In this document: positions 15,754 to 34,305 of the stretch, piece after piece
Position numbering within the stretch: the stretch's first letter is position 1
Layout: each line of letters starts with the position of its first letter
Source: Allofournierella sp.
Lineage (GTDB): Bacteria > Bacillota > Clostridia > Oscillospirales > Ruminococcaceae
Reading direction: 5' to 3'
Length of the DNA: 64,000 bases
Assembly: GCA_020025635.1 (NCBI GenBank)
Contig: JAHHRU010000003.1
Coordinates: forward strand, 33,218-97,217
Position numbers and translations under genes: made by a program
The notes under the pieces: generated by a model
Database searches by the model: none
What the model saw: only the letters and a program-made list of their open reading frames with translations
Told to the model about the DNA's origin: nothing

Positions 15754-15759
15754 GGAAAC

Positions 15760-16548
15760 TCAATCCTCCTCTGGGCCGTACGCATACCGGCCCTCGTCTT
15801 CATCCTCTTCCGGGTCCTGGGGCGGCGCCACAGAAGGCCGGCCGGGGGTCACAATAAAGCCGGTGAAGTCCGGCAGCTCCCGCAGGTCCGCTTCCAGGCA
15901 GCCGGCGCCGCTGGCGAGCTTCTCCTGCATTTCGTCGGTATAAACCGGCACCACCACATACAAAAGCACCTTTTTGCTCACCTTGATGGGCACCGGGTGC
16001 ACGGTTTTGGGGCCGTTTTTTTCAGCGGGCAGATACAGCACCGCACCGCTGAATTCGGTGTTGGGGGCAAGCGGCCGGGCCGGGTCTCCGTTGGGGATGG
16101 AATGGCCGCTGCCCAGCCAGGTGTGCTGCTTTTGCGGCATGCAGGCAAGATGATACAGCATCCGCAGCGGCCAGCAGGTTTCCGGGTCCGGGTCCTGCTG
16201 AGCCGGTTTTGCCAAAAGGCCTGCCATGGGCCAGCTTGCGGGCAGATACATCATCAGTTCCGCCGTGCGCAGATAGGCATACTGCCGGTTGTGGGCCATG
16301 TTGTCCAGTTCCATCAGATTGGCGCTCATGCCCACCGTATAAGCCACATAGTAGGGCTCCTGCTCGGTGGGTGCCATCAGGCGGATGCGCATGCCGTCCT
16401 TATCCGTCCATTCAATGGTGGTCCGGCCGGGAAAATTCTCTTCAAAATGGGTGATGATATTTTCCGCATAAGGGGTGTTGTAAAGGGGGCCCTCATGGGC
16501 CGGTTCTTCCGGCTCAGGGCCGCCGAACAGTCTGCTCAGAAACGACAT
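15760..16548 (-). CDS. suppressor-of-fused (SUFU)-like domain protein with acidic C-terminal tail
   Basis: 262 aa, no TM or signal peptide. The pattern ...YYVAYTVGMS...AELMMYLPASWP...WPLRML...GHSIPNG matches my recollection of bacterial SUFU-domain (PF05076-like) proteins. The coding call is solid; the family call is from memory. Confidence 0.55.
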   Translation of the reverse strand: MSFLSRLFGGPEPEEPAHEGPLYNTPYAENIITHFEENFPGRTTIEWTDKDGMRIRLMAPTEQEPYYVAYTVGMSANLMELDNMAHNRQYAYLRTAELMMYLPASWPMAGLLAKPAQQDPDPETCWPLRMLYHLACMPQKQHTWLGSGHSIPNGDPARPLAPNTEFSGAVLYLPAEKNGPKTVHPVPIKVSKKVLLYVVVPVYTDEMQEKLASGAGCLEADLRELPDFTGFIVTPGRPSVAPPQDPEEDEDEGRYAYGPEED

Positions 16549-16553
16549 TTGGG

Positions 16554-17531
16554 TCAGGCCTCCTCGATGCGCTGGATCAGCGCGATGGTTTCCCGGTCCT
16601 TTTCAAAACTGTAACGGGCCTCTTCCTTTCCGGCCAGAACGCCGAAGAAGTTCTGCAGCTCGTCCACATAGGCATTCTCCACGATATTGTCCGAATACCG
16701 GGGATCATGCTCAAAGCTTGCATAGGTATTCACCGGCTGCTTTTCGCCGGTTTCATGATCAAATTTGTACAGTGCGCGGGGGTTGCCCTCCCAGAAAAGA
16801 TGCAGGCCCTCGCCGAAGCATTCAAAATTGCGCACGGCCTTGGGGCTCACCACGTCCACGGCCAGCAGGCCCTTGGTGCCGTTTTTGTGGCGCAGGGTCA
16901 CAAAATAGCTGTCCGGGTAGTCGATTTCCAGCTGGCTGATCTTATCCTTTTCCACATGGACCTTTTCCACCGGGCCGAAGGTGTCCAGCAGCCAGGGCAG
17001 ATCCACACCGAAAATTTCCCGCACGCCGCCGGTGCGCTTGTCCCCCACAAAGAAATTCTTATAGCTTTCCCAGGGGTGCCAGTCGGGCAGGTACTGGCCG
17101 ATGTGATAGATGTAGTTGACCGGTTTTGCAAAGGCATCCACCTGCCCCTTGATATACTGGGTCTCACCCCGGTACAGCATGGTGGAGGAAAGGAAGAGCA
17201 CAAGGCCCTTTTCCTTTGCCTTGCGGATGTTTTCGGTGTAGCCGTCATCCACCAGGTTGAGCTCAGTGAACACCGAAAGCCCTGCATCCAAAAGCTGTGA
17301 GATGATGCCGGAATGGGTGATGGGTGCCGTGCACACCAGTGCCCCGTCAAAGCTTTCGGCCTTTACAGCCTGTTCGATGCTTTCAAAGGCACGGATGCCC
17401 AGCTTTTCCACTTCCTGCCGGCGCTCGGCGCTGGTATCCACACCGCACACTACCGCTTCAGGGTCAATGCCCCGGATGAGCCGTGCCCGGCGCTTGCCCA
17501 TGCTTCCAAGACCCACGATCAACAGTTTCAT
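16554..17531 (-). CDS. Gfo/Idh/MocA family oxidoreductase
   Basis: True start is the ATG at 17531 (MKLLIVGLGSMGKRRA). The 465-aa track ORF extends upstream into neuC and that extension is Arg/Gly/Pro-rich junk. Confidence 0.8.
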   Translation of the reverse strand: MKLLIVGLGSMGKRRARLIRGIDPEAVVCGVDTSAERRQEVEKLGIRAFESIEQAVKAESFDGALVCTAPITHSGIISQLLDAGLSVFTELNLVDDGYTENIRKAKEKGLVLFLSSTMLYRGETQYIKGQVDAFAKPVNYIYHIGQYLPDWHPWESYKNFFVGDKRTGGVREIFGVDLPWLLDTFGPVEKVHVEKDKISQLEIDYPDSYFVTLRHKNGTKGLLAVDVVSPKAVRNFECFGEGLHLFWEGNPRALYKFDHETGEKQPVNTYASFEHDPRYSDNIVENAYVDELQNFFGVLAGKEEARYSFEKDRETIALIQRIEEA

Positions 17532-17560: not shown

Positions 17561-18760
17561 TTATTCCCCGTCGTAAAACTCTTTTGGGCTTCCGAACCCG
17601 GTACAGAAAAGCTTTTCTTCCAAAATATCCACAATGCGGCGGCTGGTTTCCCCGCCGTTGTAAGGGCTCACCGTGCGGCGGGCCTGCAAAACAAACTCCG
17701 GCTCCAGCGCCTTTTCCAGCGCAGCCTGGATCTGTGCTTTGTCCGCCGGGCAGCCGATCACGTTCTGGCAGAGGATGCGCCCCTTCTGCCGGTCGCCGAT
17801 GTTCACGGTGGGAACGCCCATGGTCGGGGTTTCCACAACCCCGGAAGAGGAGTTGCCAGCCACCAAAGCCGCAAGGCTCATGGCCGAAAGATAGCGCACC
17901 ACACCAAGGCTGGTGTATGCTGCCGCCGTGTCCCGGTTTGCCCCGGCCCATTCGTCGATCATTCTGTTCAGATCCAGGCCGCCGGCATCCGCATTGGATT
18001 TGGTGATAAGCCAGCGAAGCCCCGTTTTTTCGGTCACAGCGCTCATGGCTTTCAGCAGTGCTTCCATCTGGGCTTTGGGGTCTTTCCCGCCGGCAGTTTC
18101 CGGGTGGAAGGTCACAAGGCCGAAGGGCCGGGTCAAATCAAAACCCAGGCTTTCGGAAAGCTCTTGGGCATTCATTTTGGGCATGGTGCGCAGGTTTTCG
18201 TCCCCAAGGCCGCCCACATTGAACACCGTCTTCGGCGCTTCGCCCATGCGGATGACCCGCCGGGCATATTCCTCACAGCTGGGGAAATGCAGATGGGCGA
18301 TTTTGGTGATGCAGTGGCGGTACCAATCGTCCGCGGCACCCAGTGTCACATCGCCGCCGCTGATGTGCACCACCGGCACCCCGGCATAGGCGGCCGCCTG
18401 CGCCGCGGCAAAAATTTCATAGCGGTCGCCCAAAACCAGGGCCGCATCCGGCTTTGCCTGCAAAAACCAGCGGGTGAATTCCCGGATGGTATAGGCTACC
18501 GTATCGGCGGTGGCTTCTCTGCCCTGGCCGAATTTCAGGATGGGGATGCGGGCCGCAATGGGCATGCCGTCCCTTTCGATCTCCGAAACGGTGTTTCCGT
18601 AGGCCTCTTCCAGATGGGCGCCGGTCACGATCAGTGCGGGGGTGATTTTTTCCGATCGCAGCAGCTTTTCAAGCACCGGGCGCAGCAGGCCGTATTCGGC
18701 CCGGGTGCCGGTGACAACTGCCAGTGTCTTTTTTTCCATAAAAGCTGCCCCGCTCATCAC
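17561..18760 (-). CDS. neuC: UDP/GDP-N-acetylglucosamine-type 2-epimerase (hydrolysing), NeuC/LegG family
   Basis: 399 aa. LAVVTGTRAEYGLLRPV..., GDRYE and HISGGDVT motifs. ATGA overlap with the upstream neuB. Confidence 0.9.
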   Translation of the reverse strand: MMSGAAFMEKKTLAVVTGTRAEYGLLRPVLEKLLRSEKITPALIVTGAHLEEAYGNTVSEIERDGMPIAARIPILKFGQGREATADTVAYTIREFTRWFLQAKPDAALVLGDRYEIFAAAQAAAYAGVPVVHISGGDVTLGAADDWYRHCITKIAHLHFPSCEEYARRVIRMGEAPKTVFNVGGLGDENLRTMPKMNAQELSESLGFDLTRPFGLVTFHPETAGGKDPKAQMEALLKAMSAVTEKTGLRWLITKSNADAGGLDLNRMIDEWAGANRDTAAAYTSLGVVRYLSAMSLAALVAGNSSSGVVETPTMGVPTVNIGDRQKGRILCQNVIGCPADKAQIQAALEKALEPEFVLQARRTVSPYNGGETSRRIVDILEEKLFCTGFGSPKEFYDGE

Positions 18761-19758
18761 TCCAGCAGAACGATGGGCTCGTCCTCGCTGAAGGCCTTGC
18801 AGGCGCGCTTGCCCAGCACATCATACCAGCGCATGGGGCTGATGCCGGTGCCGGGGCGCTTGGTGGTCAGGTTTTCCTCGGTGAACACCTCACCGATCTT
18901 GATATCCCGGGCCGCCACGATGCTTTTGCGGGCGATGGGCTTGTTTTTGGCCTCAGAGTCGGTCACAGCCTTGTGGCCGGTGCCCAGAGCCTTTTCCACA
19001 TTGCGCACAGCCTTTATCATTGCGGCCAGCTCCTGCGGTTCCAGGCTGGCCTTGTGGTCCGGGCCTTCCATATTTTTATCCAAAGTAAAGTGCTTTTCGA
19101 TCACCACCGCACCCAGGGCCGCTGCGGCCGCGTCGCACTCCCAGCCAGGGGTATGGTCCGACAGGCCCACCGGAACGCCGAACTGTTCCGACAGGTCCAG
19201 CATGGCCAGAAGGTTTGCATCCTCGTAAGGGGTGGGGTATTCGGTATTGCAGTGCAGCAGTGTCACATACGGGCAGCCGCCGTTTTCAAGAACGCTCAAA
19301 GCATCCTCGATCTCCGAAAGGGTGCTCATGCCAGTGGAAAGGATGACCGGCTTTTTTGCCGCCGCCACCGCTTCCAGATAGGGCAGATTGGTAATCTCGC
19401 CGCTGGGAACTTTGAAATAGGGCAGATCCAGGCCCGCCAAAAACTGAACGCTGGGCACATCGAAGGGAGCCGACAGATACTGGATGCCGATGTGATCGCA
19501 GTATTCCTTCAGCTGACGGTGGCCGTCAAAATCAAAATGCAGCCTGCGGATCATTTCCAGCTGGCTCTCACCGTCGCCGGTCTGCTTTTTCTGGTATTCA
19601 GCCTTTTCGGCAAATTTGCTCACCACCAGCTCGGGCACGGCGGTCTGGTATTTCACCACATCCGCTCCGGCTTCCTTGGCGGCAAGGGCCATCTTTTTGG
19701 CAAGCTCCAGGCTGCCGTTGTGGTTCACGCCGGCTTCTGCAATTATCAAAACGCTCAT
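18757..19758 (-). CDS. neuB: N-acetylneuraminate/legionaminate synthase, NeuB/LegI family
   Basis: 333 aa. IIAEAGVNHNGSLELAKKM...DVVKYQT, LSDHT, and a C-terminal SAF domain. Confidence 0.92.
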   Translation of the reverse strand: MSVLIIAEAGVNHNGSLELAKKMALAAKEAGADVVKYQTAVPELVVSKFAEKAEYQKKQTGDGESQLEMIRRLHFDFDGHRQLKEYCDHIGIQYLSAPFDVPSVQFLAGLDLPYFKVPSGEITNLPYLEAVAAAKKPVILSTGMSTLSEIEDALSVLENGGCPYVTLLHCNTEYPTPYEDANLLAMLDLSEQFGVPVGLSDHTPGWECDAAAAALGAVVIEKHFTLDKNMEGPDHKASLEPQELAAMIKAVRNVEKALGTGHKAVTDSEAKNKPIARKSIVAARDIKIGEVFTEENLTTKRPGTGISPMRWYDVLGKRACKAFSEDEPIVLLE

Positions 19759-20804
19759 TGGTTTTCCTCCAGTTTTCTGCGCATCTTGTCCAGTTCTTCC
19801 ATCTGGCCCATATCCATCCAGCTTTGTTCGCTTACCGGGTAGACCCCGACCTTTTCGCCCAGGGCCCGGTAATGTTCAATGATATCGGTGAAGCCCTGGC
19901 ACTTGCCGTCCTCCAGCTCTTCGATCACCCGGGGCTCCACCGCATAAATGCCGGTATTGGTCCAGAAGTTCATCTCCGGCTTTTCCTGCATGGACTGGAT
20001 CGCACCGTTTTCACCCAGCTGGATGACCCCATAAGGCACAGTGAAGTGCTTTGCGGCGCACACCATGGTGATCACGTTGCCCTGCTTTTTGTGATATTCG
20101 GCAAGGTCGGCAAAATCCGCATCCAGCAAAATGTCACAGTTGGAAAGGAAGAAGGTCTTTTGGATCTGGCCCTTCAAAAGGCACAGGCCGCCTCCGGTGC
20201 CCATGGGGATATCCTCATCCACATAGCTCACCTGATAGGGCGGGTCAAGATCGTTGAAATAGCTTTTGATCATGCCCTTTTTGTAGTTCACCACCAGCCG
20301 GAAATCGGTGCAGCCGAAATCCCGGAACTTGTCGATGATGTGCTCCAGAATGGGCTTTTCCCCCACCGGGATGAGGGGCTTTGGCAGGATCTTGGTATAA
20401 GGATACAGGCGGGTGCCAAGGCCCCCCGCCATGATGACCACCGGGATCTCGGCACAGCTGCGGTTGTTCACATCCACGCCGCTGGTGAAGATGATATCCA
20501 CGATACGCCCCTTTGCATCCAGCAAAGGCAGTGCATCAATGGAATGCTGTTCGATATAGCTGCGGGCCAGGCCGCGCTGCCCCACCGGCAGGCTGAACGG
20601 ATGCCGGTTTGCCGCATCGGCCGCAAGGCCCTCCAAAGAGCCGCCCCGCAGGATGTATTTCCGAATATCCCCGTCGGTCAAAGCGCCCTTCAAAACCCCG
20701 TCCGGGGCCAAAAACAGGATGCGCTCGCCGGTTTCATCCAGGCGCTGCATCGCGCCCAGCACAGTCATTTCTTCGTTTATCAGAAACTGTTCGATTTGGA
20801 GCAT
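19755..20804 (-). CDS. CBS-pair plus sugar-phosphate nucleotidyltransferase (PtmE-like)
   Basis: 349 aa. N-terminal CBS pair (GALTDGDIRKY), then VVIMAGGLGTRLYPYTKILPKPLIPV, the NTP-transferase signature. Confidence 0.8.
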   Translation of the reverse strand: MLQIEQFLINEEMTVLGAMQRLDETGERILFLAPDGVLKGALTDGDIRKYILRGGSLEGLAADAANRHPFSLPVGQRGLARSYIEQHSIDALPLLDAKGRIVDIIFTSGVDVNNRSCAEIPVVIMAGGLGTRLYPYTKILPKPLIPVGEKPILEHIIDKFRDFGCTDFRLVVNYKKGMIKSYFNDLDPPYQVSYVDEDIPMGTGGGLCLLKGQIQKTFFLSNCDILLDADFADLAEYHKKQGNVITMVCAAKHFTVPYGVIQLGENGAIQSMQEKPEMNFWTNTGIYAVEPRVIEELEDGKCQGFTDIIEHYRALGEKVGVYPVSEQSWMDMGQMEELDKMRRKLEENQ

Positions 20805-22070: not shown

Positions 22071-22706
22071 TTATTTCTTCCTCTTAGATTTATACCACAC
22101 ATACGCCTCCTGAGCAAGTGACAGGGCCGCTGCCGCCAGCGCCGGATAGAGGAGCATCCGGAAAAAGCCGTACCAGCCGGGGGCAAAATACATCCAGAAG
22201 GCCACCGGCTCGTTCACCTTGAAATCGCCGAACCGCATTTCCACGGTTTTTTCTTCATCCGGGCTGCAGGGGTCCAGCCGAAGGGCAGCGATATTGCCTG
22301 CCGGCAGGGTGTAAAGATAGGTGCCGTCGTTTTTCTGCTGCGCAAACACCCGCTTGTTCACCCCAAAGGGCTCATCGGGTTTGTTTGTGTAGTAAAGGCA
22401 CATCTCCCGGGGGCTGTGTGAAAACTCGGCTTCCATGCGCAGAGTGCGCAGAGTGATGCCGTCGGTATTCTGCCAGATCATCTGGGGGTCGCTGTTCTCG
22501 TTCACATACGGCCCTTCCGGGGCTTTGTGCATATTCACAAGCTCAAAATCCTGCGCCTGCATGGAAAATTCATAAAGGCTGCCGGTGCTTTTGGTGATCA
22601 TATCCCGCCCAAAGGACCAGATGCCGCCAATAAGCCACACCAGCACACACACCGCATAGCACAAAGCCGGAATGGAGAGCTTTTCTTTCCATTTATTCTG
22701 TTTCAA
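22071..22706 (-). CDS. bitopic membrane protein (N- and C-terminal TM helices, ~140-aa extracytoplasmic domain), unknown function; paralog of 24768..25385
   Basis: 211 aa. TTG start with GGAGGTG RBS. TTGA overlap with the upstream stop. Shares DPQ...LR[LI]DP motifs and architecture with the 205-aa ORF. Confidence 0.6.
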   Translation of the reverse strand: MKQNKWKEKLSIPALCYAVCVLVWLIGGIWSFGRDMITKSTGSLYEFSMQAQDFELVNMHKAPEGPYVNENSDPQMIWQNTDGITLRTLRMEAEFSHSPREMCLYYTNKPDEPFGVNKRVFAQQKNDGTYLYTLPAGNIAALRLDPCSPDEEKTVEMRFGDFKVNEPVAFWMYFAPGWYGFFRMLLYPALAAAALSLAQEAYVWYKSKRKK

Positions 22707-24727
22707 TTGGGCACCTCCATGGCCACCGGGGCAAACAGGCCGTCCTCCACCTTATAAAGCAGGGTCTCATGGTTTTCAGCCGCCGAAAGGCCGTCTTCAA
22801 ACAAGGCTCCGTAGGCCGCCGCAAAGCCGGGGTCCAGCTTTTCCACAAACACATAGCGGCTGCCGCTTTCCCGGATGGCTTTTTCCAGCTCCTCTGGGGT
22901 GTAGGAGTGGTAATAGATGGCACCAGGCTGCTCGGGGTCGGGGGTATTTTCCGGCAGGCCGAAGGTCCCGCCGCCGGCACCCCAGCGGCCGGTTTCCTTA
23001 TCCTGCTCCCAGCCGCTGTAATCCAGCACATTGGGCTGCAGATAGCAGCCGTAGGTGAACCATTTCAGGCCGTTGTCGCCCTGGGTAACAAGGAACACCC
23101 GGCTGTCGTCCCCCATGGCGGTTTTCACCGCTTCGGCCTTCTGCTGCATCAGCTTCTGGTCGGCAAATTCCGCATCCGAAAAGCCCAGAACGCTGAACTG
23201 GGGCAGCACCAGCATATTCACCCGCAGCAGCATCAGCACGCTGAAGGCCAAAAGGCCGGTGTTCAAAAGCAGGCGGCATTTTCCGGTCTGGATCACCCAG
23301 GCCAGCACCGCCGCCGCCATCAAAAACCAGCCGATGTAATAGGTGGTCATATAGCGGTTGTAGTCTTCCAGGCGCTCTGCCTGGAACTCTTTAAAGATAA
23401 AGCCGTAGCACAGGGTGAGCACATAATTGTAGGCGGCAAAGCCCAAAGTGCTGCCCACCATCCACATGGCCGCCCGCAGCCGGTCCCGGGCATTTTTCGC
23501 AAACAGCACCGCCGCCAAAAAGATGCACAAAATCAGCACCGCGACCACCACCCCCTGGCCGACGGCCGAAAGGGCTTTGTCCGGGCTGTAAAATTCCGCT
23601 TTCATCCGGCGGGCAACGTCAAAGAACCGCTCTGCCCGCACCTGGTAATATTCCGGCACCGGCAGGCCCAGCAAAAGCCGGGTGCCGTTGATGGCAACGC
23701 TGATGGTGTCCTCGCTGGTGGCGCCCATGCCGCCGGCCTCGCTGTTTGCGATCACCAGCCGTGCAATGTAGGAGCCCCAGATCTTGTAAAGCACCAGCGG
23801 CGATGCCATGCACAGGGCCGAAAAGCCCAGCCGCTTTGCCCAGCCAGTGCGCCATTTTTCTTCATAGCCGAAAAGGAAATAGTCAGCTGCGATCAAGGCC
23901 GCCGTGATGAGCGCCAGCGGGAAGGTATTGTCCTTGATGTTGGCAAGGAACGCCAGCACCGGCAGGATGGTCCAGAGAGGGCCGCCTTTTTTGCGCAGGG
24001 CAAACCAAAGCGCCGCCGCACCGCCAATGAGCATGCCGGCGGGGATATCGCCGTAAGCGCTCATGTAGACCTTGCTCACAAAAATGGTGCGGTTGTAGGT
24101 GGTGAGGAACCAGGGGGTCAGCCAGCCGATCACCGCAAGCGGCACCGCCAGCTTATAGTTTTTCATTTCCACCACGCCCACCAGCGCCGCAATGCAGGCA
24201 AACAGCATCAGGTCATAACCCAGGTAGACCTTGAAATGGGCAAACCGGCCGAAGAACTGGGCGAAATAGCCCAGCATCACAAGGCCCGGGTTCTGGCTGG
24301 GCAGCCAGGGGGTGCCGTATTCCCCCACCGTGTACAGCCGGTCGGTGGTTTTGGTCATCTGGGCAGCGGTGCCCCAAAAGCTGAATTCATCGAATTCGCT
24401 GAACATGGGCTGGCGCACCGAAAAGTAAACCGCAAAAAACACGGCCAGCACCCAAAACACCATCGCACCGGGGCTTATCAGCTGTTTCCAGCGGGCTTTT
24501 TCTCTGCACCCCCAAAAGGCCCAGATGCCAAGCCCCAGGCACACAAGATACAGCACCCAGCCGGCGGGCTTCAAAAGGTCTGCCACACCGGCAACCGCAA
24601 ACCAGCTGGAAATGCAGCTGAGCGAAACCAGCGGAGCCAGCGCACTGTGCAGCCCTGCTTTGAGGGTGAAGAAAGCACAGAGCAGGAACAGGGCCCCAAG
24701 GCTCAATACCAAATCAAAATAAAGCAA
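22703..24727 (-). CDS. polytopic membrane protein, putative GT-C-fold (PMT/ArnT-like) glycosyltransferase; paralog of 25382..27394
   Basis: Many TM helices. Loop-1 motif PMFSEFDEFSFWG. Soluble C-terminal domain. I prefer the TTG at 24727 (GGAG 7 nt upstream), because the track start at 24820 adds a Lys/Arg-rich extension overlapping the upstream gene. Confidence 0.6.
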   Translation of the reverse strand: MLYFDLVLSLGALFLLCAFFTLKAGLHSALAPLVSLSCISSWFAVAGVADLLKPAGWVLYLVCLGLGIWAFWGCREKARWKQLISPGAMVFWVLAVFFAVYFSVRQPMFSEFDEFSFWGTAAQMTKTTDRLYTVGEYGTPWLPSQNPGLVMLGYFAQFFGRFAHFKVYLGYDLMLFACIAALVGVVEMKNYKLAVPLAVIGWLTPWFLTTYNRTIFVSKVYMSAYGDIPAGMLIGGAAALWFALRKKGGPLWTILPVLAFLANIKDNTFPLALITAALIAADYFLFGYEEKWRTGWAKRLGFSALCMASPLVLYKIWGSYIARLVIANSEAGGMGATSEDTISVAINGTRLLLGLPVPEYYQVRAERFFDVARRMKAEFYSPDKALSAVGQGVVVAVLILCIFLAAVLFAKNARDRLRAAMWMVGSTLGFAAYNYVLTLCYGFIFKEFQAERLEDYNRYMTTYYIGWFLMAAAVLAWVIQTGKCRLLLNTGLLAFSVLMLLRVNMLVLPQFSVLGFSDAEFADQKLMQQKAEAVKTAMGDDSRVFLVTQGDNGLKWFTYGCYLQPNVLDYSGWEQDKETGRWGAGGGTFGLPENTPDPEQPGAIYYHSYTPEELEKAIRESGSRYVFVEKLDPGFAAAYGALFEDGLSAAENHETLLYKVEDGLFAPVAMEVPN

Positions 24728-24767
24728 TTTCGTTCTCCTTTGTTTCTGCCTCTTTTTGAAAGGCAGA

Positions 24768-25385
24768 TCAGGCTTCTTTTTTGAACAGCGCTTTTGCTTC
24801 CAGCCAGAAGGCCGCGGCAAAAAGCGGCAGCACCAGCAGCATCAAAAGCTGCTTTGCCCCAAAGCGGAAGGCCGTTTTGAAGGGGCTTTCGGGGTTCAGG
24901 GCAAAGCCGTCCATGCGGGTGATCACGCCACCGGCGCTGTCCGGGTCGATGCGAAGCTCGCTGACACGTTTTCCGCCCAGATCGAACTCAAAGCAGCCGG
25001 GCTCGGTTTCCTTTCCATAAACCGACTGCGCCTGGGAAAAATCGGCCTGGCCGGGCTCTTTCCAGTAAAGCACCGCCGCAAAGCCCTCCTGCTTTTGAAA
25101 AAGCCGCAGCCGGGCGCTGTCCAGATACAGTTCTCTTTTCAGGTGAAGCTGCGGGTCCTCATCGGTGGAAACATACCATTCTCCCGGCTCATCGGTTTCC
25201 AGCGGCTTCACGCTGATGGTTTCAAAGCTTGCAAGGCCCAGGGTTTCCTCTGCCCGAAGCCCCTTGCTTTCATAATAAACACCCCGCCCCAGGCGAAGAA
25301 TGCCCGCAAACAGAAAAATCAAAGCTCCTGCAAGATAGGCCGCCGCCAAAAGGCGGGCAGTGGGACGCATTTTTCCGTTTTTCAT
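24768..25385 (-). CDS. bitopic membrane protein, unknown function; paralog of 22071..22706
   Basis: 205 aa. N- and C-terminal TM helices. ATGA overlap with the upstream stop. Confidence 0.6.
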   Translation of the reverse strand: MKNGKMRPTARLLAAAYLAGALIFLFAGILRLGRGVYYESKGLRAEETLGLASFETISVKPLETDEPGEWYVSTDEDPQLHLKRELYLDSARLRLFQKQEGFAAVLYWKEPGQADFSQAQSVYGKETEPGCFEFDLGGKRVSELRIDPDSAGGVITRMDGFALNPESPFKTAFRFGAKQLLMLLVLPLFAAAFWLEAKALFKKEA

Positions 25386-27394
25386 CTTCCGTCCCCTCCG
25401 TTCACAAGGCTCCAGCCCACGGAATCGCCGGTGTACTCGATCTTCACCAGATAATCCCGGTCGGTCCGCTCCAAAGGCAGGCCCTCAAGCCCAAAGGCCG
25501 GCGCAAGCTCCTTTGAAAAATATTCATCCGGCGTATCCACCAGCAGGTAGTCATAGCGCTTGTCCAACAAAAAGAGCTTCAGATCCTCCACATCGCACAC
25601 CGTCTGGTAGGGGTACACCTCGGGGACATCCTCCCCTGCCGCATCCGGGCTCACGATGTTCATGTGGGTGGTGGGCCAGGTGTAATCGTCCGGGTGGCCG
25701 TAGCCAAAGCCGCCAAAGCCCCCCGAAAGGGTAGCATTCAGGGCATAGCCGTAATAGTTCCAGCCGGTGCCCCGCTCCCCCTGCTTGATGAGCAGCACCT
25801 TATCTCCCCAGGAAAGCTCCGGATTCACCTGCTGTGCTCGCCGGTCGATCTCTTCCCGCTCGGAGTAAAGGCTTCTGGGATAATCCAGAAAACCTGCCGC
25901 CGGGGTCCCTCTCAGGGCGATCAGCGCCCCAAAGGCAAGGGGCAGGCCCAGCAGCACAAGACGGCTGAGCCGGGGCAGATTTCCTTCTTCCCGGCTTTTT
26001 GAAAGAAAGCCCAGTGCCAACAGGAAAAAGCCCAGATAATAAGGCCCGATGTATCGGCTGTAATCTTTGAGCACCAGCGCCTCCTGCTCTGCAAACATGA
26101 AGGCATAAAGGAAAAAGTGGAAAACAAGAAAAGCCAAAAGCCCCAGTGTGAGCACGGCCGCCATCAGGATGGGCTGGTGCTTTTCTCCCTTGGGCAGGCA
26201 GAGGGCCGAAACGCCCATCACCGCAAAGATCAGCGCCAGGGCCAGCACACCGGCGCCCAAAAGGCAGACCGGGATATTGAAGGGCGAAGCCAGCATCCGG
26301 TCCCGCACTGCGGCCACCCGCTCGGTGGGCTCTTCCAGCCCCAGCAGCTGCCGGGTTCCGGTTACGACCATATCCACCGGGCTCAGCTGCTTTTCCCAGT
26401 TGCCCAAAGTGCCCTTGTCCAGCCCGGAAACCGAAGCCACATAGCGGCTCCACAAAAGATACACCACCGGCACCGGCACCGCCAGCCCAAGGCCGGCAGC
26501 CACGGTTTTTCCAAAGCGGCGCAGGGTGGGCTTTCCTGCCGCAAACAGATGATCCAGGCAGATGGTGCCCGCCGCGATCAGCGCATAGGCAAGGCCCATA
26601 TCTTTGATAAGGGTCAAAAAGCACAGCGAAACGCCGGTGAGCACAAAACCCGGGGTTTTGCCCCCGGAGTGCAGGTAGATGCACAGGCTGGCACCGAACA
26701 CACTGCCCAAAAACAAATCGCCCATTGCGGTGACATACACATTGGAAACGCCGCCCAGAGCCGGCTGCGCAAAAAAGAACGGAACCAAAAGCCCGGTGCA
26801 CAAAAGCAGCACCGAGGCCGGCCAGTTCTTTTTGCCAAGTGCAGCCGCCACAGCAGCCAAAGCCGCCGCAAACAGGCTGTCCAGCGCAAAATAAACGCTC
26901 CACTCAGAAAACCCGGAGCCGAAAAACTGGAAGAAATACGCAAGCACCGGCAGACCCGGGTTGTATCCCCTTGCCAGCAGCATCCCCTCGGCCGCAGGGT
27001 GCAGCACGTTCTGAAGCTTTGTCAGCCGGCAGGCCGTGCCCCAGAAGGTGAATTCATCCCAGCTGATGAACATGGGCTTTGTGATGCAAAACAGCCCAAG
27101 AAAAAAAAGCGACGTGCCGGCAAAGAACAAAACGCCGGGCACCAGCAGCTTTTTGGCCGCTTCTGCCAGTTCCTTTTTGTAAATGAGCCAGCCCAGCGAA
27201 AGCGCCGCCAGCGCCCAAACCAGAGCGCCGCCCAGCCAAAGAAAGCCGAAAATGCCCCAAAGCCAGATCCACAGGGCAATGCCCCCCATGACCGGCAGCA
27301 CCAGCAGTGCCGCATCCAGATCGAACCTTCGGGCCAAAAAGCCGCAGAAAACAAGTATCGCGGCAAGTGCCAGCAGCCCGTTCAAAACAGCCAT
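25382..27394 (-). CDS. polytopic membrane protein, putative GT-C-fold (PMT/ArnT-like) glycosyltransferase; paralog of 22703..24727
   Basis: ATG at 27394 preceded by AAAGGAGGTG. Loop-1 motif PMFISWDEFTFWG. The track start at 27574 overlaps the upstream gene and is rejected. Confidence 0.62.
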   Translation of the reverse strand: MAVLNGLLALAAILVFCGFLARRFDLDAALLVLPVMGGIALWIWLWGIFGFLWLGGALVWALAALSLGWLIYKKELAEAAKKLLVPGVLFFAGTSLFFLGLFCITKPMFISWDEFTFWGTACRLTKLQNVLHPAAEGMLLARGYNPGLPVLAYFFQFFGSGFSEWSVYFALDSLFAAALAAVAAALGKKNWPASVLLLCTGLLVPFFFAQPALGGVSNVYVTAMGDLFLGSVFGASLCIYLHSGGKTPGFVLTGVSLCFLTLIKDMGLAYALIAAGTICLDHLFAAGKPTLRRFGKTVAAGLGLAVPVPVVYLLWSRYVASVSGLDKGTLGNWEKQLSPVDMVVTGTRQLLGLEEPTERVAAVRDRMLASPFNIPVCLLGAGVLALALIFAVMGVSALCLPKGEKHQPILMAAVLTLGLLAFLVFHFFLYAFMFAEQEALVLKDYSRYIGPYYLGFFLLALGFLSKSREEGNLPRLSRLVLLGLPLAFGALIALRGTPAAGFLDYPRSLYSEREEIDRRAQQVNPELSWGDKVLLIKQGERGTGWNYYGYALNATLSGGFGGFGYGHPDDYTWPTTHMNIVSPDAAGEDVPEVYPYQTVCDVEDLKLFLLDKRYDYLLVDTPDEYFSKELAPAFGLEGLPLERTDRDYLVKIEYTGDSVGWSLVNGGDGR

Positions 27395-27434: not shown

Positions 27435-29099
27435 TCACCGGATGGTGAACACCGGGCCGATGAAATAATGCTGGAACAAGAGCACGGCACCCACCGCGCC
27501 AAAGGCCGCCGAGGTGCCCAGGGCCAGCGTGTGGGCTTTTTTCTGCCCCTGCTCCAGGCGGGGCTCCAGCACATGGCTCAAAAGCGCCGCCAGCAAAACA
27601 AACAGCATGAGGAAGGCCGGCAGGAAATACCGGGCCTGCAGCCCGATGATGCGGATCATGCCCACCGGGGTGCTGGTGATATACATGGCCGTGGCCGCAC
27701 CCGCAATGTAAACAATGCTCAGCGCTCCAAGCCCCAGGGCAGGCCGCAGCCGCAGGCTGCTTTTTTCGTGCACCGAAAGGGCCGCCGCAAACAGCAGCAC
27801 CAGCGGGCTCATCCAGCTGATGAACCCCACTTCCAGATCCAGCGCGCCGAACAGCCCCAGCTGCCCGATGAAGAAATCGTTTTCATAAAAGCTGCCCAGC
27901 AGCACCGAAACGTAACGGAAGGGGTTCTGCAAAATGCCCAAAAGCTGAGGCACCTCGGCCGCACCGGCGATCTGCCGGCCCACATAGGGGTAGTTGTAGC
28001 GGAACACCGTTCCGTACCAGTCAAAAAACTTGCCCAGGGCAAACCCGCCCACAAGGCACACCGCTGCCAGCTGCCACTTTTTCCACCGGGTCTTCCAGGC
28101 GGTTTTGGGCAGCACCAGCGGCAGAGCGATCCACAACAGGTTGATATAGGGTTTTGCCAGGTTCATCATCACAAAGGCAAAAATGAACCAGCCGATGTCG
28201 CTGTCGGTGATCTCATCCTTGCAGTAGAAGCTGGCCACCAGGTAGTAAAAGCCCAGAAGGGTGGCATCATAGCTCACCGATGCCGCCATGTAAAGGCTCA
28301 GGGGCAGCAGCATGAATGCAAGGAACACCGGCTTATACCGCCGGCAGTTTTTAAGGGCCAGCCAGCAAAGCGCCGTGTATGCGGCAAGGTTTGCCAGCCT
28401 TGCGGCATACATGCAGCCAAGGGCGCCAAAGCCCAGCAGCCGGGCCGCCAGAATACCCAAAGCTTGGGGCAGCATGGAAACGGTCATAAAGAAATAGGGC
28501 TCGCCCAGCTGTTTTTCAGCGGGCACTCCGTTTCGGTAAGCGGAAAATCCATCCAAAATGCCTTCCACCCGGCCGTTTTCGCCCCGCTGTTTCAGGGCAT
28601 AGCCTGCCGTGGTGTAGCTTTTGGGGTTGCCGTCCCCATCCATGCCCATGCCCTGACTGGTGTGGGAGGCCACATACGCCCCGGGGAAGCTTTCCACCAG
28701 CTTTGCCACATCCTGCGGATAAATGCGCTGGGCATCAAAATCGAAATGCCCGCAGCTCAAGGACCAGCTGCGCAGAAAATGGTTGGTTTCATCCGGGGTC
28801 TGCAGCGGCGGGTTTGCAAAGCAGAACAAGGCGCCGCACAAAAAAATGGCCGCGGCGGCTTTGGCGTCCAACGTGGGGATAAAGCGGTGGCACAGGTACA
28901 CCGCCAATACACAAAGCAAAGCGAGGCCTGCCGCCGCCCCATACAAAGGCAGCGGGGCCACGCCCCGGGCATCCAGATAATAAAATACCCGCCAGTAATA
29001 AACCAGGGCCGCTGCCCCGGCCGCGGCGGCCAAGGCCCCCAGCAGCCAGCCCGCTGCCGGCAGGAAGCGCCCCGCCTTTTTGTTTTTCAGAGCTTTCAT
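27435..29099 (-). CDS. polytopic membrane protein, DUF2142-like (putative GT-C-type transferase)
   Basis: 554 aa. TM1, then NPPLQTPDETNHFLRSW (the PDE..H motif I associate with DUF2142), then about 10 or more further TM helices. Confidence 0.55.
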   Translation of the reverse strand: MKALKNKKAGRFLPAAGWLLGALAAAAGAAALVYYWRVFYYLDARGVAPLPLYGAAAGLALLCVLAVYLCHRFIPTLDAKAAAAIFLCGALFCFANPPLQTPDETNHFLRSWSLSCGHFDFDAQRIYPQDVAKLVESFPGAYVASHTSQGMGMDGDGNPKSYTTAGYALKQRGENGRVEGILDGFSAYRNGVPAEKQLGEPYFFMTVSMLPQALGILAARLLGFGALGCMYAARLANLAAYTALCWLALKNCRRYKPVFLAFMLLPLSLYMAASVSYDATLLGFYYLVASFYCKDEITDSDIGWFIFAFVMMNLAKPYINLLWIALPLVLPKTAWKTRWKKWQLAAVCLVGGFALGKFFDWYGTVFRYNYPYVGRQIAGAAEVPQLLGILQNPFRYVSVLLGSFYENDFFIGQLGLFGALDLEVGFISWMSPLVLLFAAALSVHEKSSLRLRPALGLGALSIVYIAGAATAMYITSTPVGMIRIIGLQARYFLPAFLMLFVLLAALLSHVLEPRLEQGQKKAHTLALGTSAAFGAVGAVLLFQHYFIGPVFTIR

Positions 29100-29225: not shown

Positions 29226-30209
29226 TTACAGGTTGTACACTTCCGGCTTGTACTGATCCAGATTTGCACGCAGGAATTTGATGGTTTCGGCAAGACCCTC
29301 CTCAAAGGTATAGGCCGGCTTCCAGTCGGTGAGCGACCGGATCTTGTCGGCGCAGCCCAAAAGGCGGTTTACTTCGCTCTTTTCCGGGCGCAGGCGCTGT
29401 TCATCACAGATGATGCGTGCTTCGGGGTTGATCTGGCGGATCAGCTCGTTTGCCAGATCTCCGATGGAGTGCTCAACGCCGGTGGCAATGTTCACTTCCT
29501 GGCCGATGGCCTTCTCGCAGCCGGCAAGGGCCATGAAGCCCGCAGCGGTGTCCTTCACATAGTTGAAGTCACGGGTGGGCGTCAGGCTGCCGAGCTTGAT
29601 CTCGGTCTGGCCGCTGAGCAGCTGGGTGATGATGGTGGGAATGACCGCACGGGCACTCTGACGGGGGCCATAGGTGTTGAAGGGCCGCACGATGGTGACC
29701 GGCAGATCGAAGCTGCGGTAAAAGCTTTCAGCCAGGCGGTCGGCACCGATCTTGGTTGCCGAATAGGGGCTCTGGCCCTGGTAGGGGTGCTTTTCATCAA
29801 TGGGAACATACTGGGCGGTGCCGTAAACCTCGCTGGTGGAGGTCACCAGCAGGCGCTTGGTGCCCACCTGGCGGGCAGCATTCAGCACATTGAGGGTGCC
29901 CTTGATGTTGGTGTCCACATAGCTGTCCGGGCTGTGATAGCTGAACGGGATTGCAATGAGGGCAGCCAGATGATACACGATGTCCTGCCCTTCCATGGCA
30001 TGGCGCACACCGTTGGGGTCACGGATATCGCCCATAAACACTTCGATCTCGTTTTTGATCTCAGAAGGCAGAGAATCCAGCCAGCCCCAGCTGCCAAAGG
30101 AATTGTAATAGCAAAAAGCCTTGACCTTCTCGCCCTTGCGTACCAGTTCTTCTGTCAGGTGGCTGCCGATAAAGCCGTCAGCACCGGTTACCATTACCGT
30201 ATTTGCCAT
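29226..30209 (-). CDS. NAD-dependent sugar-nucleotide 4,6-dehydratase, LegB-like
   Basis: 327 aa. VTGADGFIGSHL, YNSFGSWGWL, STSEVYG, YSATK and RPFNTYGPRQSARAVIPTIITQ resemble the Campylobacter LegB-type GDP-GlcNAc dehydratase subgroup. First gene of the minus-strand operon. Confidence 0.82.
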   Translation of the reverse strand: MANTVMVTGADGFIGSHLTEELVRKGEKVKAFCYYNSFGSWGWLDSLPSEIKNEIEVFMGDIRDPNGVRHAMEGQDIVYHLAALIAIPFSYHSPDSYVDTNIKGTLNVLNAARQVGTKRLLVTSTSEVYGTAQYVPIDEKHPYQGQSPYSATKIGADRLAESFYRSFDLPVTIVRPFNTYGPRQSARAVIPTIITQLLSGQTEIKLGSLTPTRDFNYVKDTAAGFMALAGCEKAIGQEVNIATGVEHSIGDLANELIRQINPEARIICDEQRLRPEKSEVNRLLGCADKIRSLTDWKPAYTFEEGLAETIKFLRANLDQYKPEVYNL

Positions 30210-30380: not shown

Positions 30381-31946
30381 TTGAGTTTTCAGAGTCTTTC
30401 CTATTTTGCCTTTCTGCCGCTGGCAGCCTTCGTTTATCTGAAGCTTTCCCCAAAAGGCTGGCAGAACGGTGTTCTGCTGGCTGCAAGCCTTTTGTTTTAC
30501 TGGTGGAACCGGCCTTCTGGAAGTGCATTTTCCGGCATTTGGCCGTTTGTACCGGCGGCTTTGCTTATTTTGTGCAGTCTTTTCATCTGGAGGCTGGCGC
30601 TTTCCATCGAAAAGGCCCCGGCAAACCGCCGCAGGCGTTTGATCGGCCTTGGCATTGCCGTTCTGCTGGCGGTTCTGGCCCTTTTCAAATATTACAACCT
30701 GGTTTTGCCGATGCTGCCCATTGCGCCGGGTATGCTTCACCGGCTGCCCTTTCCCTTAGGCATCAGCTTTTACAGCTTTGCCGCCATCAGCTATCTGGTG
30801 GACGTGAGCCGAAAGGATATGCCCGCCCAGCGGGATTTTGTTTCCCTTGCTGCCTTCCTGTGCTTTTTCGGCTGCATCACCGCCGGTCCCATCTGCCGGG
30901 CCCGCCTGGTGCTGCCCCAGCTTGAGCAGGAGCACCGCTTCGATGCACAGCGCACCGTTCGGGCCATGCGGCTGTTTGGGCTGGGCCTGTTTAAAAAGGT
31001 AGCGGTTGCGGATGTGCTGATGGTTTATGTTTCCCAGGTTTTCGGGGATATTCCCGGCCACGGGGGGCCTGCCCTTCTGCTTGCCACTGTTTTTTACACC
31101 CTTTACCTTTATTTTGACTTTCTGGGCTATTCCGAAATGGCTCGTGCCAGCGCCCTTCTGCTGGGCCTTGAAATTCCGGAAAACTTCAAAACGCCCTTTT
31201 TTGCCACCAACTTCTCCGGCTTTTGGAGCCGCTGGCACATCAGCCTTTCCGGCTGGCTTCAGGATTATCTGTTCACCCCCCTTGTTTGGGCCGATGTTTC
31301 CAAGGTCCCGCTTTTGGGCCGCAGGGTGAGCCGCTTTTCGCCGGTGTTCTGCGTATTCACCGTGTTTTTTGTTTCCGGCTTTTGGCATGGCAGCACCCTG
31401 CCTTTTGTTGTGTGGGGCCTTTTGCAGGGCCTTTACCGGGCCGGTGAAGAGATCGCCCACCAAAAGCTGGGCAAGCCCCGGCGCAAGACTCCCGGCCGGG
31501 TGCTGTGGGCAAAGCGGGCCGGGGTGTTCTGCCTGTGGAGCTTTGGCATGGTGTTTTTTGCCATGGGCTCAAACGTGGGCGCAGCCGCAGGCGAAAGCCG
31601 GGGCATCCGGGATGCCTTTGCCATTCTGGCCGGCTGGTTCAAAGGCTGGTCTTTTCCCCGCTTTGTTTCGGAGAGCCGGCAGGCCGTTCTGGACGGTTTC
31701 TATGCCCAGCCCCTGATGGCCGCCGCCTTTGTGCTGTTCCTGGCGGTTTCGCTCATCCTTGCCGTTTGGCTGGATGTAAAACGGAATTTCAGCTTTAAAA
31801 ACAAGGATGAAGAGCAGGTGCTGGCTGCACAGAAGCCGGTTCTGCGCTGGGTGCTTTACTATGCACTGGTGCTTCTTTCCTTTGCCGGTCTGGTGATGCA
31901 GAACGGCGGTTTTGCCGGGGGCAGCTTTGCCTACGGCGGTTTCTAA
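30381..31946 (+). CDS. MBOAT family O-acyltransferase (AlgI/DltB-like)
   Basis: 521 aa, TTG start after AAAGGAG. Multi-TM, with WRRWHISLSxWLxDYLF-like block (FWSRWHISLSGWLQDYLF) and conserved His. Confidence 0.88.
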   Translation: MSFQSLSYFAFLPLAAFVYLKLSPKGWQNGVLLAASLLFYWWNRPSGSAFSGIWPFVPAALLILCSLFIWRLALSIEKAPANRRRRLIGLGIAVLLAVLALFKYYNLVLPMLPIAPGMLHRLPFPLGISFYSFAAISYLVDVSRKDMPAQRDFVSLAAFLCFFGCITAGPICRARLVLPQLEQEHRFDAQRTVRAMRLFGLGLFKKVAVADVLMVYVSQVFGDIPGHGGPALLLATVFYTLYLYFDFLGYSEMARASALLLGLEIPENFKTPFFATNFSGFWSRWHISLSGWLQDYLFTPLVWADVSKVPLLGRRVSRFSPVFCVFTVFFVSGFWHGSTLPFVVWGLLQGLYRAGEEIAHQKLGKPRRKTPGRVLWAKRAGVFCLWSFGMVFFAMGSNVGAAAGESRGIRDAFAILAGWFKGWSFPRFVSESRQAVLDGFYAQPLMAAAFVLFLAVSLILAVWLDVKRNFSFKNKDEEQVLAAQKPVLRWVLYYALVLLSFAGLVMQNGGFAGGSFAYGGF

Positions 31947-31976
31947 ACGACAAACAAACGGAAAGGAGTGCTCTGC

Positions 31977-32966
31977 ATGGGCCGCATCCTGAAAAAAACC
32001 GCGCTGCTTTTGCTGCCGGTGGCACTTTACTTCTGCCTTTTTGCAGCCTTTGAGCCCAACAATTATTTCGGGCTGCGCTCTGCCGGCGGCGGCGAGGCCC
32101 CCATTGCCCGGCTGAAAAGCTTTGAACAGCAGCCGGGCAGCCGCATCATCATCGGCGATTCCCGCCTTGCCCATTTCGATATGCAGCAGGTGGAAGCGGT
32201 AAGCGGCCGCCCCTGGCAGAACCTGGCGTTCGGCGGGGCTTCTCTGCGGGAAGGGGTGGACGTGCTGAACTGGGCCTTAGACCACAACCCGGAGCTTTCG
32301 GAAGTGGTGTTCGGGCTTTCGTTCTACACCCTCACCACCACCTATGATGCCGACCGGATGACCAGCCTGCAGAAAACGCTGGACAACCCCTTCGCTTACT
32401 TTTTCAACCTGGAATACAACGTGAATATGCTCACCCGGCTTTCCTCCTGGGTGCAGTGGATGATTTCCACCTCCGGCGGCAAAACCGGCCTCAGCTGGGC
32501 CCAGGCTCAAATGGAAAACGAAACCGGCGACTGGGTATCGCCAAAGGATTACACCGGCCCGGACGGCACGGTGTACCCGCTGCACACAAAGCTTGCCCTT
32601 TACCCCGGCGCACTGAAAGCCCGCTGCGAGGGCTGGACCCTCAACCGCCAGCAGCTGGACCGCTTTTACGCCGCCGCCCGCCGCTGTCAGGAGCAGGGCG
32701 TCCGGCTCACGGTGGTGCTGCCGCCCATGGCGGATATCGTGCTGACCGAAAGCTGCACCCCTTACGGCATCGACCTGGCCATGGAAAACGAGGTGCTGCC
32801 GGAGCTTCGGGCAAAAGCCGATGAGCTGGGCTTTTCGGTGCTGGACTATGAATGGCACAACCGCCCAAAATACGATGATGACCGCCAGTTCTTTGACGGT
32901 TTCCACCTGGATATGAAATACGGCCTGCCGGACTGGACAGCCCAGCTGTTCACCGATCTGGGCTGA
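31977..32966 (+). CDS. DltD/AlgJ-like SGNH-type partner of the MBOAT (putative glycan O-acyltransferase accessory protein)
   Basis: N-terminal TM anchor, IIIGDSRLAHF (GDS block). Sits immediately downstream of the MBOAT. ATG at 31977 with GAAAGGAG RBS. Confidence 0.6.
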   Translation: MGRILKKTALLLLPVALYFCLFAAFEPNNYFGLRSAGGGEAPIARLKSFEQQPGSRIIIGDSRLAHFDMQQVEAVSGRPWQNLAFGGASLREGVDVLNWALDHNPELSEVVFGLSFYTLTTTYDADRMTSLQKTLDNPFAYFFNLEYNVNMLTRLSSWVQWMISTSGGKTGLSWAQAQMENETGDWVSPKDYTGPDGTVYPLHTKLALYPGALKARCEGWTLNRQQLDRFYAAARRCQEQGVRLTVVLPPMADIVLTESCTPYGIDLAMENEVLPELRAKADELGFSVLDYEWHNRPKYDDDRQFFDGFHLDMKYGLPDWTAQLFTDLG

Positions 32967-32982
32967 GGGAGGCATTTTCACT

Positions 32983-34296: not shown

Positions 34297-34305
34297 GGAG
34301 GCTTC

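Follow-up and report, generated by a model that had tools for sequence, protein, structure and literature searches.

A predicted GT-C membrane protein family with detached carbohydrate-binding-module-like subunits, encoded in legionaminic-acid-type operons of gut Oscillospiraceae

Two consecutive gene pairs, each encoding a large polytopic membrane protein (L1, L2) and a small bitopic protein (S1, S2), lie within a sugar-biosynthesis operon of Allofournierella sp. (GCA_020025635.1, contig JAHHRU010000003.1, 33,218–97,217 of the forward strand; the whole stretch analysed, 64,000 nt long, is called the window below). The structural models indicate that the L proteins are very probably the catalytic subunits of GT-C-type glycosyltransferases that make up a family not named before, each with a dedicated subunit S whose predicted fold is that of a carbohydrate-binding module (CBM). 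The L–S pairs probably contribute, outside the cell, to the assembly of a sialic-acid-like surface glycan, and the full reading, in which they act on a glycan containing legionaminic acid (Leg) outside the membrane, has in our judgement slightly better than an even chance of being right. What is new here is best read as a GT-C family, so far unannotated, whose CBM-like subunit is detached and co-evolves with it, encoded alongside a DUF2142 GT-C protein in the Leg operons of gut Oscillospiraceae. The four genes are as follows (aa, amino acids; ORF, open reading frame; TM, transmembrane).

25382..27394, minus strand: L1, 670 aa, ORF with translation; predicted GT-C-fold membrane protein with about 14 TM helices
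24768..25385, minus strand: S1, 205 aa, bitopic partner of L1
22703..24727, minus strand: L2, 674 aa, TTG start, with the same architecture as L1
22071..22706, minus strand: S2, 211 aa, TTG start, partner of L2

The two consecutive large-plus-small pairs had been proposed in a sequence-only reading of this DNA, and all four genes are present where that reading put them. Each of the four starts is preceded by an AAGGAG/GGAGG-like ribosome-binding site. The 4-nt overlap that had been claimed for each pair can be read directly from the sequence, as ATGA at the L1/S1 junction (AGATGAAA) and as TTGA at the L2/S2 junction (AATTGAAA). In both pairs the small gene is translationally coupled to the large one. 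L1 and L2 align from end to end with 28% identity (E 9e-51), and S1 and S2 align with 24% identity (E 5e-13), which bears out the view that the large proteins, and likewise the small ones, are paralogs.

Neither L1 nor L2 has a match in Pfam or NCBIfam, and 10 distant relatives are likewise without a significant Pfam match (E ≤ 1). The profiles of PMT/GT39 (PF02366, PF16192), PMT_2/ArnT-like (PF13231), and YfhO (PF09586) proteins do not match L, and for the STT3/PglB/AglB group there is neither a Pfam match nor a WWDxG motif in the L translations. A word-indexed search yielded 45 relatives of L, the named ones of which are annotated as "hypothetical protein," and an exhaustive search with a hidden Markov model (HMM) against 1.84 billion cluster representatives (50% identity) yielded 4,565 at E ≤ 1e-3 and 1,072 at E ≤ 1e-30. 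Judged by sequence, L is a sizeable unnamed family. In an alignment of 30 L sequences, Asp113, Glu114, Trp118, Gly119, Asp226, Lys264, Arg447, and Tyr448 (D113, E114, W118, G119, D226, K264, R447, and Y448) are invariant, and a C-terminal motif, SQGD...RWNYYGYELN, is conserved. The first four of these residues belong to the acidic loop-1 motifs that had been quoted for L1 and L2, and both motifs are present.

An AlphaFold2 model of L1 (pLDDT 88.1, pTM 0.89) has about 14 TM helices. In a Foldseek comparison of this model with the PDB, the top 12 matches are all GT-C structures (probabilities 0.96–1.00), including ArnT (5ezm, E 1.7e-4), Pmt4, AglB, AftA, human and yeast STT3, and DPY19; ALG3 ranked 14th, and transporters gave probabilities of at most 0.2 with TM-scores of at most 0.15. 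At the level of fold, modelled L1 is therefore a many-TM protein that superposes on solved GT-C enzymes, which agrees with the transferase fold that had been suggested. Its topology was predicted from the positive-inside rule, with Lys and Arg residues counted per loop over 128 family members on the helices of the L1 model. Short loops rich in Lys/Arg alternate with loops poor in them, and the resulting prediction places outside the membrane the D-E loop (residues 106–163), D226, K264, the 324–381 loop, R447/Y448, and the C-terminal domain, which is an acidic alpha/beta domain of 175 aa. The first long extracytoplasmic loop of this predicted topology carries the conserved acidic pair D113–E114, as in GT-C enzymes, and an extracytoplasmic position of the acidic loop had been expected from the sequence. 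About three extra N-terminal TM helices precede the canonical unit of GT-C proteins (TM, D/E, two short helices, TM).

No match to S1 or S2 was found in Pfam, NCBIfam, or PDB sequences, including a search of the PDB with the S profile, and S falls in none of the CBM sequence families covered by these searches. The model of S1 (pLDDT 88.1) comprises an N-terminal TM helix (residues 8–40), a beta-sandwich (47–163), and a C-terminal TM helix (177–204). Both termini of S read as basic in the sequence, and the sandwich is therefore predicted to be extracytoplasmic. Foldseek places jelly-roll domains of CBM86, CBM6, CBM29, and CBM32 at the top (E from 6e-6, probability 1.0); the entries include CBM86 6sgf and CBM6 1o8s, 1uy1, and 1gmm, with E from 6e-6 to 1.5e-5 and target TM-scores of 0.55–0.59 at an identity of 8–9%. 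The modelled ectodomain thus has the jelly-roll fold of CBMs. The DPQ and LR[IL]DP motifs noted earlier in the small proteins are real: among 28 very diverse S sequences, the only invariant residues besides the start Met are D77 (in DPQ) and R145 and D147 (in LRIDP), with N164 nearly so, and this conservation suggests that these residues mark a conserved binding site. S had been regarded as a specificity or length-determining subunit, and the CBM-like fold favors the former, as a specificity or acceptor-binding part, over a length regulator of the Wzz type. No Pfam match assigns S to the Wzz/polysaccharide co-polymerase (PCP) proteins, and its ectodomain is all-beta and about 120 aa long; the two-TM topology is common to both.

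The association of L with S extends well beyond the window. Relatives were surveyed with the motif DE[FY][TS][FL]WG[TS]A as the seed in one genome per species, which returned 73 loci, 70 of them with a full L; ORFs were called in these loci and then searched with the L and S profiles. Nearly all of the loci are labelled Oscillospiraceae (Allofournierella, Gemmiger, Subdoligranulum, Anaerofilum, Ruthenibacterium, Faecalibacterium-labelled metagenome-assembled genomes, and unnamed genera). An S gene stands directly downstream of 128 of the 137 full-length L genes in the 70 loci. Seven of the nine other L genes make up a subclade without S (L046, L054, L058, L062, L063, L064, and L067); its L is shorter (about 637 aa) and is encoded directly 5′ of NeuB, after LegB and DUF2142. 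At the 128 L/S junctions, for which start sites were assigned heuristically, overlaps of 4 nt (68) and of 1 nt (11) contribute to 87 overlaps of any length, and at a further 23 junctions the two genes lie within 30 nt of each other. From the side of S, an independent metagenome scan seeded with a closer S alignment gave 130 S genes with sufficient sequence upstream, of which 129 follow an L; this sample is redundant and mostly from the human gut. Conservation of the small genes next to the large ones in relatives, on which the idea of a two-gene module depended, is thus seen from both sides. Fusions of L and S are absent among 150 family representatives.

L and S also diverge together. Their pairwise distance matrices correlate with r = 0.91, L clades map almost one to one onto S clades, and assignment of paralogs between loci by L agrees with assignment by S in 76% of cases (about 45% by chance). 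In 42 of 50 multi-pair loci, the L1 of the window is closest to the L in first position; L2 is closest to the L in second position, also in 42 of 50. S1 behaves in the same way (closest to the first-position S in 44 of 50), and S2 is closest to the second-position S in 30 and to the third in 11. Because the pairs are orthologous position by position, the duplication predates the genera, and each type of pair has been kept. The tandem duplication that had been read from the window therefore stands insofar as the pairs are paralogous, but it is ancient rather than recent. A departure from the usual order is found in locus L050 (7735–15169), where the genes run DUF2142, S, L, L, S, S, that is, three S genes with three GT-C genes; the S directly after DUF2142 hints that an S-type partner might serve DUF2142 too. 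A Gemmiger L protein (P0077) shares its 90%-identity cluster with a 49-aa fragment, "arginyltransferase, partial [Vibrio parahaemolyticus]," probably through contamination or a clustering artifact.

In the window, the pairs are part of a 14-gene minus-strand operon that runs from 30209 to 14019 with intergenic gaps of −4 to 126 nt, in the order LegB, DUF2142, L1, S1, L2, S2, LegC, CBS-nucleotidyltransferase, NeuB, NeuC-type epimerase, GFO, SUFU, GFO-like, and cytidylyltransferase. Besides the four genes given above, its members are as follows.

29226..30209, minus strand: LegB, NAD-dependent 4,6-dehydratase, at the head of the operon (TIGR04180, 510.7 bits against a cutoff of 475)
27435..29099, minus strand: DUF2142 (PF09913) polytopic membrane protein (Pfam 1.7e-37), with a P-D-E motif in the first loop
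20842..22026, minus strand: LegC-family aminotransferase (TIGR04181, 449 bits against a cutoff of 420; Pfam DegT)
19755..20804, minus strand: CBS and sugar-1-phosphate nucleotidyltransferase (Pfam NTP_transferase, CBS), which we take to be PtmE-like after the C. jejuni pathway
18757..19758, minus strand: NeuB-family nonulosonate synthase, LegI-like (Pfam NeuB 3e-97, and SAF)
17561..18760, minus strand: NeuC/LegG-like hydrolyzing 2-epimerase (Pfam Epimerase_2, 2.7e-75)
16554–17531, minus strand: GFO/IDH/MocA oxidoreductase, in the distal end of the operon (14019..17531, gaps ≤29 nt)
15760–16548, minus strand: SUFU-domain protein (PF05076, 1e-24), between the two GFO-like oxidoreductases
14827–15753, minus strand: second GFO-like protein, in the distal end
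14019–14825, minus strand: cytidylyltransferase, LegF-like (Pfam CTP_transf_3)

LegB, LegC, a NeuB-type synthase, a NeuC-type epimerase, and a cytidylyltransferase are all present, and by this gene content the operon encodes a pathway of the Leg type. An N-acetyltransferase (LegH) was not found in the operon of the window; the Gemmiger operon has a GNAT protein there. The pairs had been described as a two-pair module inserted in the operon. Both pairs are indeed there, but the block also holds a third polytopic protein, the DUF2142 protein at 27435–29099. Apart from the window, locus L006 is the only place where the SUFU-domain protein, an odd member of a sugar pathway, was seen. The best promoter-like sites in the divergent region 30266–30337 are a minus-strand site at 30294–30266 and a plus-strand site at 30309–30337. 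Terminator-like matches found in a terminator scan fall inside annotated genes and mark no gene ends.

The tie between the pairs and nonulosonate genes that had been noticed in the window recurs in related genomes: Leg-pathway genes are found in the flanks of 55 of the 70 loci with a full L (LegB in 51, DUF2142 in 53, NeuB in 38), and of the 45 loci that span 20 kb or more, LegB and DUF2142 occur together in 37 and Leg genes are absent from seven. The recurrent order is LegB, DUF2142, one to three L–S pairs, LegC, NTP, NeuB, NeuC, GFO, GFO, and cytidylyltransferase, so that in Leg-linked loci the DUF2142 gene follows LegB and precedes the first L. Some loci are interleaved (L–S, LegC, L–S, NTP, L–S).

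A divergent companion operon of five genes (30381..36805, plus strand) lies upstream of LegB.

30381–31946, plus strand: MBOAT/DltB-like acyltransferase
31968–32966, plus strand: 332-aa N-anchored protein with a GDS motif
32983–34296, plus strand: surface-carbohydrate protein (TIGR04396) with a relationship to the BFO_1060 family and, through it, to the Tannerella Pse/Leg transferases
34306–35535, plus strand: 409-aa polytopic protein
35645–36805, plus strand: WbuX N-acetyl-sugar amidotransferase

The BFO_1060 family has been linked to Tannerella transferases of Pse/Leg derivatives (PMC5420450). The 332-aa and 409-aa proteins have no match in Pfam, NCBIfam, or PDB even at E 10, and our guess is that the former is the extracytoplasmic partner of the acyltransferase and the latter a flippase. 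The MBOAT/TIGR04396 companion operon is found upstream of LegB in about 28–30 related loci. Minus-strand ORFs in the upstream region (149–613 aa; 30291–34887 and elsewhere) were rejected as genes: they have no Pfam matches and an odd composition, and are taken to be shadow ORFs of the plus-strand genes, long opposite-strand ORFs of this kind occurring in a genome of 57% G+C. Such shadow ORFs give conserved matches in related loci because the true genes on the opposite strand are conserved.

Elsewhere in the window, a second glycosylation-like module occupies 4457–9038 (minus strand).

4457–6202, minus strand: 581-aa polytopic protein with a large loop, without a Pfam match, possibly another unannotated GT-C
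6183–7124, minus strand: GtrB-like GT2, 313 aa, with two C-terminal TM helices, overlapping the 581-aa polytopic protein
7087–8214, minus strand: FAD oxidoreductase
8241–9038, minus strand: second GT2

Further away, at 42688–44439 (minus strand), lies the gene for a 583-aa protein in which a BlaR1-type M56 peptidase/sensor domain is followed by an M23 peptidase domain at the C terminus.

To our knowledge, characterized GT-C enzymes all use polyprenyl-phosphate-linked sugar or glycan donors (see PMC9574508). By analogy, L would use such a donor at the outer face of the membrane, and S would dock on L, bind the glycan acceptor or donor, and supply specificity. In the proposed scheme, the flanking genes would make CMP-legionaminic acid, probably a 5-acetamidino derivative, since WbuX is encoded in the companion operon; the TIGR04396 transferase would then put Leg on a lipid-linked oligosaccharide in the cytoplasm, and the lipid-linked glycan would be flipped across the membrane. 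Outside the membrane, DUF2142, L1–S1, and L2–S2 would each form one specific linkage, whether in joining units, in polymerizing them, or in attaching the product to a cell-wall acceptor, and the MBOAT pair would finally acylate the product. The presence of several non-redundant, positionally orthologous GT-C proteins per locus suggests, by comparison with ALG and Aft/Emb proteins, that they carry out successive linkage-specific steps. We infer the order of these steps, the donor, the acceptor, and the physical contact between L and S. In a variant of the scheme that seems quite unlikely, DUF2142 and the L–S pairs would handle Leg itself outside the cell, polymerizing or transferring glycans with Leg at the reducing end, perhaps from a polyprenyl-phosphate nonulosonate donor; if true, this would be the first nonulosonate transferase system that is of the GT-C type and depends on a lipid donor. 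In the Leg operons of Gemmiger formicilis and L075, which have these GT-C/S genes, no nucleotide-sugar glycosyltransferase is encoded within 10 kb.

Several observations weigh against the proposed scheme as a whole and limit how far it can be taken. As to the GT-C assignment, searches of PDB sequences with single L sequences and with the family profile gave chance matches only and hence no sequence link to a known GT-C protein; the TM-scores of L1 to GT-C structures are modest (0.31–0.46); and the idea that L is a divergent DUF2142 protein was rejected, since L has no PF09913 match and hhalign against a 57-sequence DUF2142 profile gave a probability of 6%. The motif used to seed the survey biases it towards close relatives. 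Within the operon, family scans revealed no priming transferase and no recognizable flippase, and the flippase role guessed for the 409-aa companion protein has no Pfam or PDB match behind it. No companion operon was found flanking the Gemmiger loci or L075; there, the neighbors of the Leg operon are unrelated genes. As to the substrate, Gemmiger formicilis An812 (locus L065, 7208–17748) has two L–S pairs and no Leg genes within 10 kb; the pairs are followed there by a YfhO-family GT-C protein (12514–14985, 481 bits) and by a 902-aa protein without a Pfam match. Leg-free L–S pairs of this kind are also present in L053, L060, L061, L066, L068, and L069. A distant relative of L that lacks S (P0205) is flanked by dehydratase, epimerase, and DegT genes, with a GT2-GtrA fusion and a Wzy_C protein encoded nearby, a neighborhood that by its gene content is an ArnT-like three-component context. 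Because of the Leg-free pairs linked to YfhO and the amino-sugar cluster around P0205, the L family is not intrinsically Leg-specific.

These neighborhoods bring up an ArnT/Gtr-type decoration, in which each L–S pair would move a single sugar from an undecaprenyl-phosphate-monosaccharide onto a wall polymer (teichoic acid or wall polysaccharide). The sugar might be an amino-sugar of the pathway, for example 4-amino-4,6-dideoxy-GlcNAc from LegB/LegC, and the link to Leg would then reflect shared precursors or co-regulation, with no Leg in the substrate. ArnT and Pmt4, the best fold matches of L, use lipid-phosphate-monosaccharide donors; P0205, amid dehydratase, epimerase, and DegT genes and beside the GT2-GtrA fusion, has the classic three-component layout; the YfhO proteins that adjoin the Leg-free pairs belong to a family known for such decoration; and the L genes are placed between LegB and LegC. 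However, no GtrB-like GT2 or GtrA is encoded in or next to the Leg operons examined, the sole GtrB-like GT2 of the window (6183–7124) lies 15 kb away with a polytopic neighbor of its own, and three or four different GT-C proteins per operon exceed what decoration by single sugars needs. We therefore consider decoration of this kind unlikely and prefer assembly of a Leg-containing glycan.

A strict analogy with WpsI and WpsH of Lactococcus, in which L would polymerize lipid-linked repeat units and S would set the chain length like Wzz, is improbable. Wzz/PCP proteins have an elongated helical domain. The ectodomain of S, by contrast, is a 120-aa beta-sandwich without a Wzz Pfam match, and the loci have two or three pairs each, non-redundant and orthologous by position, in contrast with the one polymerase expected per polymer. 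The points that speak for the analogy are the adjacent DUF2142 protein, which belongs to the Pfam family of WpsI/WpsJ, and the topology of S, which fits the description of WpsH as a protein with two TM helices flanking an extracellular domain, encoded beside a GT-C polymerase (PMC9574508, PMC12599335).

Protein glycosylation, with L as a PglB/AglB- or PMT-like transferase to surface proteins and S presenting the protein or glycan substrate, is more improbable still. It would account for AglB, STT3, and Pmt4 among the top fold matches, for the PMT-like D-E motif in loop 1 of L, and for its PglB/AglB-like soluble C-terminal domain, and archaeal N-glycans with Leg are known (PMC6137143); however, L has no STT3 or PMT Pfam match and no WWDxG-type motif, the conserved locus includes no obvious gene for a target protein, and S resembles a carbohydrate-binding rather than a peptide-binding module. 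That L is a non-enzymatic transporter, flippase, or scaffold with a GT-C-like helical bundle, anchored structurally by S, is very improbable: the lack of a sequence match to any characterized enzyme and TM-scores to GT-C structures of only 0.35–0.46 would fit, but transporters score far lower (probability ≤0.2 and TM-score ≤0.15, against probabilities of 0.96–1.0 for GT-C), and the invariant residues are of the GT-C type, with an acidic pair in outside loop 1 and Lys/Arg/Tyr on the outer face.

Major polymers of the cell surface, among them arabinogalactan, modified lipid A, teichoic acids, and N- and O-glycans, are made or decorated by GT-C enzymes. The L family is missing from Pfam and NCBIfam despite its 1,072 clusters at E ≤ 1e-30. 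A genetically separate and co-evolving CBM-like subunit offers a way to study acceptor recognition by GT-C enzymes. The contigs that carry the family are mostly of gut origin, either from metagenomes or from Oscillospiraceae associated with the gut (Gemmiger, Allofournierella, Anaerofilum, Ruthenibacterium, and Faecalibacterium-labelled), and the tie to Leg operons points to an uncharacterized sialic-acid-like surface glycan on abundant gut commensals, which could matter for immune recognition, phage adsorption, and colonization. The pairs are also candidates for the poorly known steps of nonulosonate incorporation in Gram-positive-type bacteria.

WpsI, WpsH, and WpsJ of Lactococcus are proposed as the nearest described system. 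In this PSP machinery, WpsI is a GT-C protein with DUF2142 and the proposed polymerase, WpsH has two TM helices and an extracellular loop and is the proposed co-polymerase, and WpsJ is a GT-C protein and the proposed ligase to rhamnan, these roles having been proposed from bioinformatics and gene inactivation (PMC9574508, PMC10821137, PMC12599335). The sequence-only reading knew of no described GT-C protein with a bitopic partner linked to nonulosonic acids. This holds for the literature found, in that a full-text search revealed no relevant GT-C system with nonulosonic, legionaminic, or pseudaminic acid, and, among the papers listed, nothing relevant on Leg in these Oscillospiraceae genera, but the scheme of a GT-C protein with a two-TM partner had already been proposed for WpsI/WpsH (PMC9574508). 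The two systems have in common several GT-C membrane proteins encoded in one surface-glycan locus, the proposed use of C55-P-oligosaccharides outside the membrane, a DUF2142 protein, and a small partner of one GT-C protein with TM helices flanking an extracellular domain, although WpsH was compared by its described topology only. Unlike WpsI and WpsJ, L is not a DUF2142 protein (no Pfam match; hhalign 6%), and unlike WpsH, which has been likened to Wzz, S is a CBM-like beta-sandwich. One to three co-evolving L–S pairs per locus are a further difference, as is the setting, which in the window is a Leg operon rather than a rhamnan/PSP locus. The "WpsH/WpsI" of Actinoplanes were rejected for comparison as unrelated namesakes.

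Among solved structures, ArnT (GT83) and PMT (GT39) are the best structural matches of L. L is like them in its acidic first extracytoplasmic loop (with D-E as in PMTs), its predicted extracytoplasmic active site, and its soluble outer domain; unlike them, it has no membership by sequence or Pfam, about three additional TM helices at the N terminus, ahead of the D-E loop, and a separate two-TM CBM-like subunit, and unlike PMTs it lacks an MIR domain. The Gtr/YfhO three-component systems (GT2 synthase, GtrA flippase, and GT-C) decorate wall polymers extracytoplasmically by means of sequence-diverse GT-C proteins. The likeness to them lies in the L–S pairs that adjoin YfhO and in the distant L relative near a GT2-GtrA fusion, whereas the Leg-linked operons have no GT2 synthase or GtrA, and those systems have no CBM-like bitopic subunit. 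The Tannerella forsythia Pse/Leg transferases (Tanf_01245, TFUB4_00887, BFO_1060) represent, through the TIGR04396 gene at 32983–34296, the sole nonulosonate-transferase-like family at the locus. They are soluble cytoplasmic enzymes of the GT-B type that use CMP-sugars and are unrelated to L and S, and they probably correspond to an upstream step rather than to an analogue of the pairs.

In the mycobacterial EmbA/B/C and AftD proteins, a GT-C membrane domain is fused to jelly-roll CBMs that hold the polysaccharide acceptor, and the Emb/Aft paralogs act successively on one polymer. No sequence relationship between these proteins and L was detected, and AftA is among the fold matches of L. Because the CBMs of Emb/AftD and the MIR domain of PMTs play such a role, S is cast here as a detached equivalent of these fused modules: what is a fused CBM in Emb/AftD would be, in the L–S pairs, a CBM-like domain produced from a separate gene and held at the membrane by two anchors of its own.

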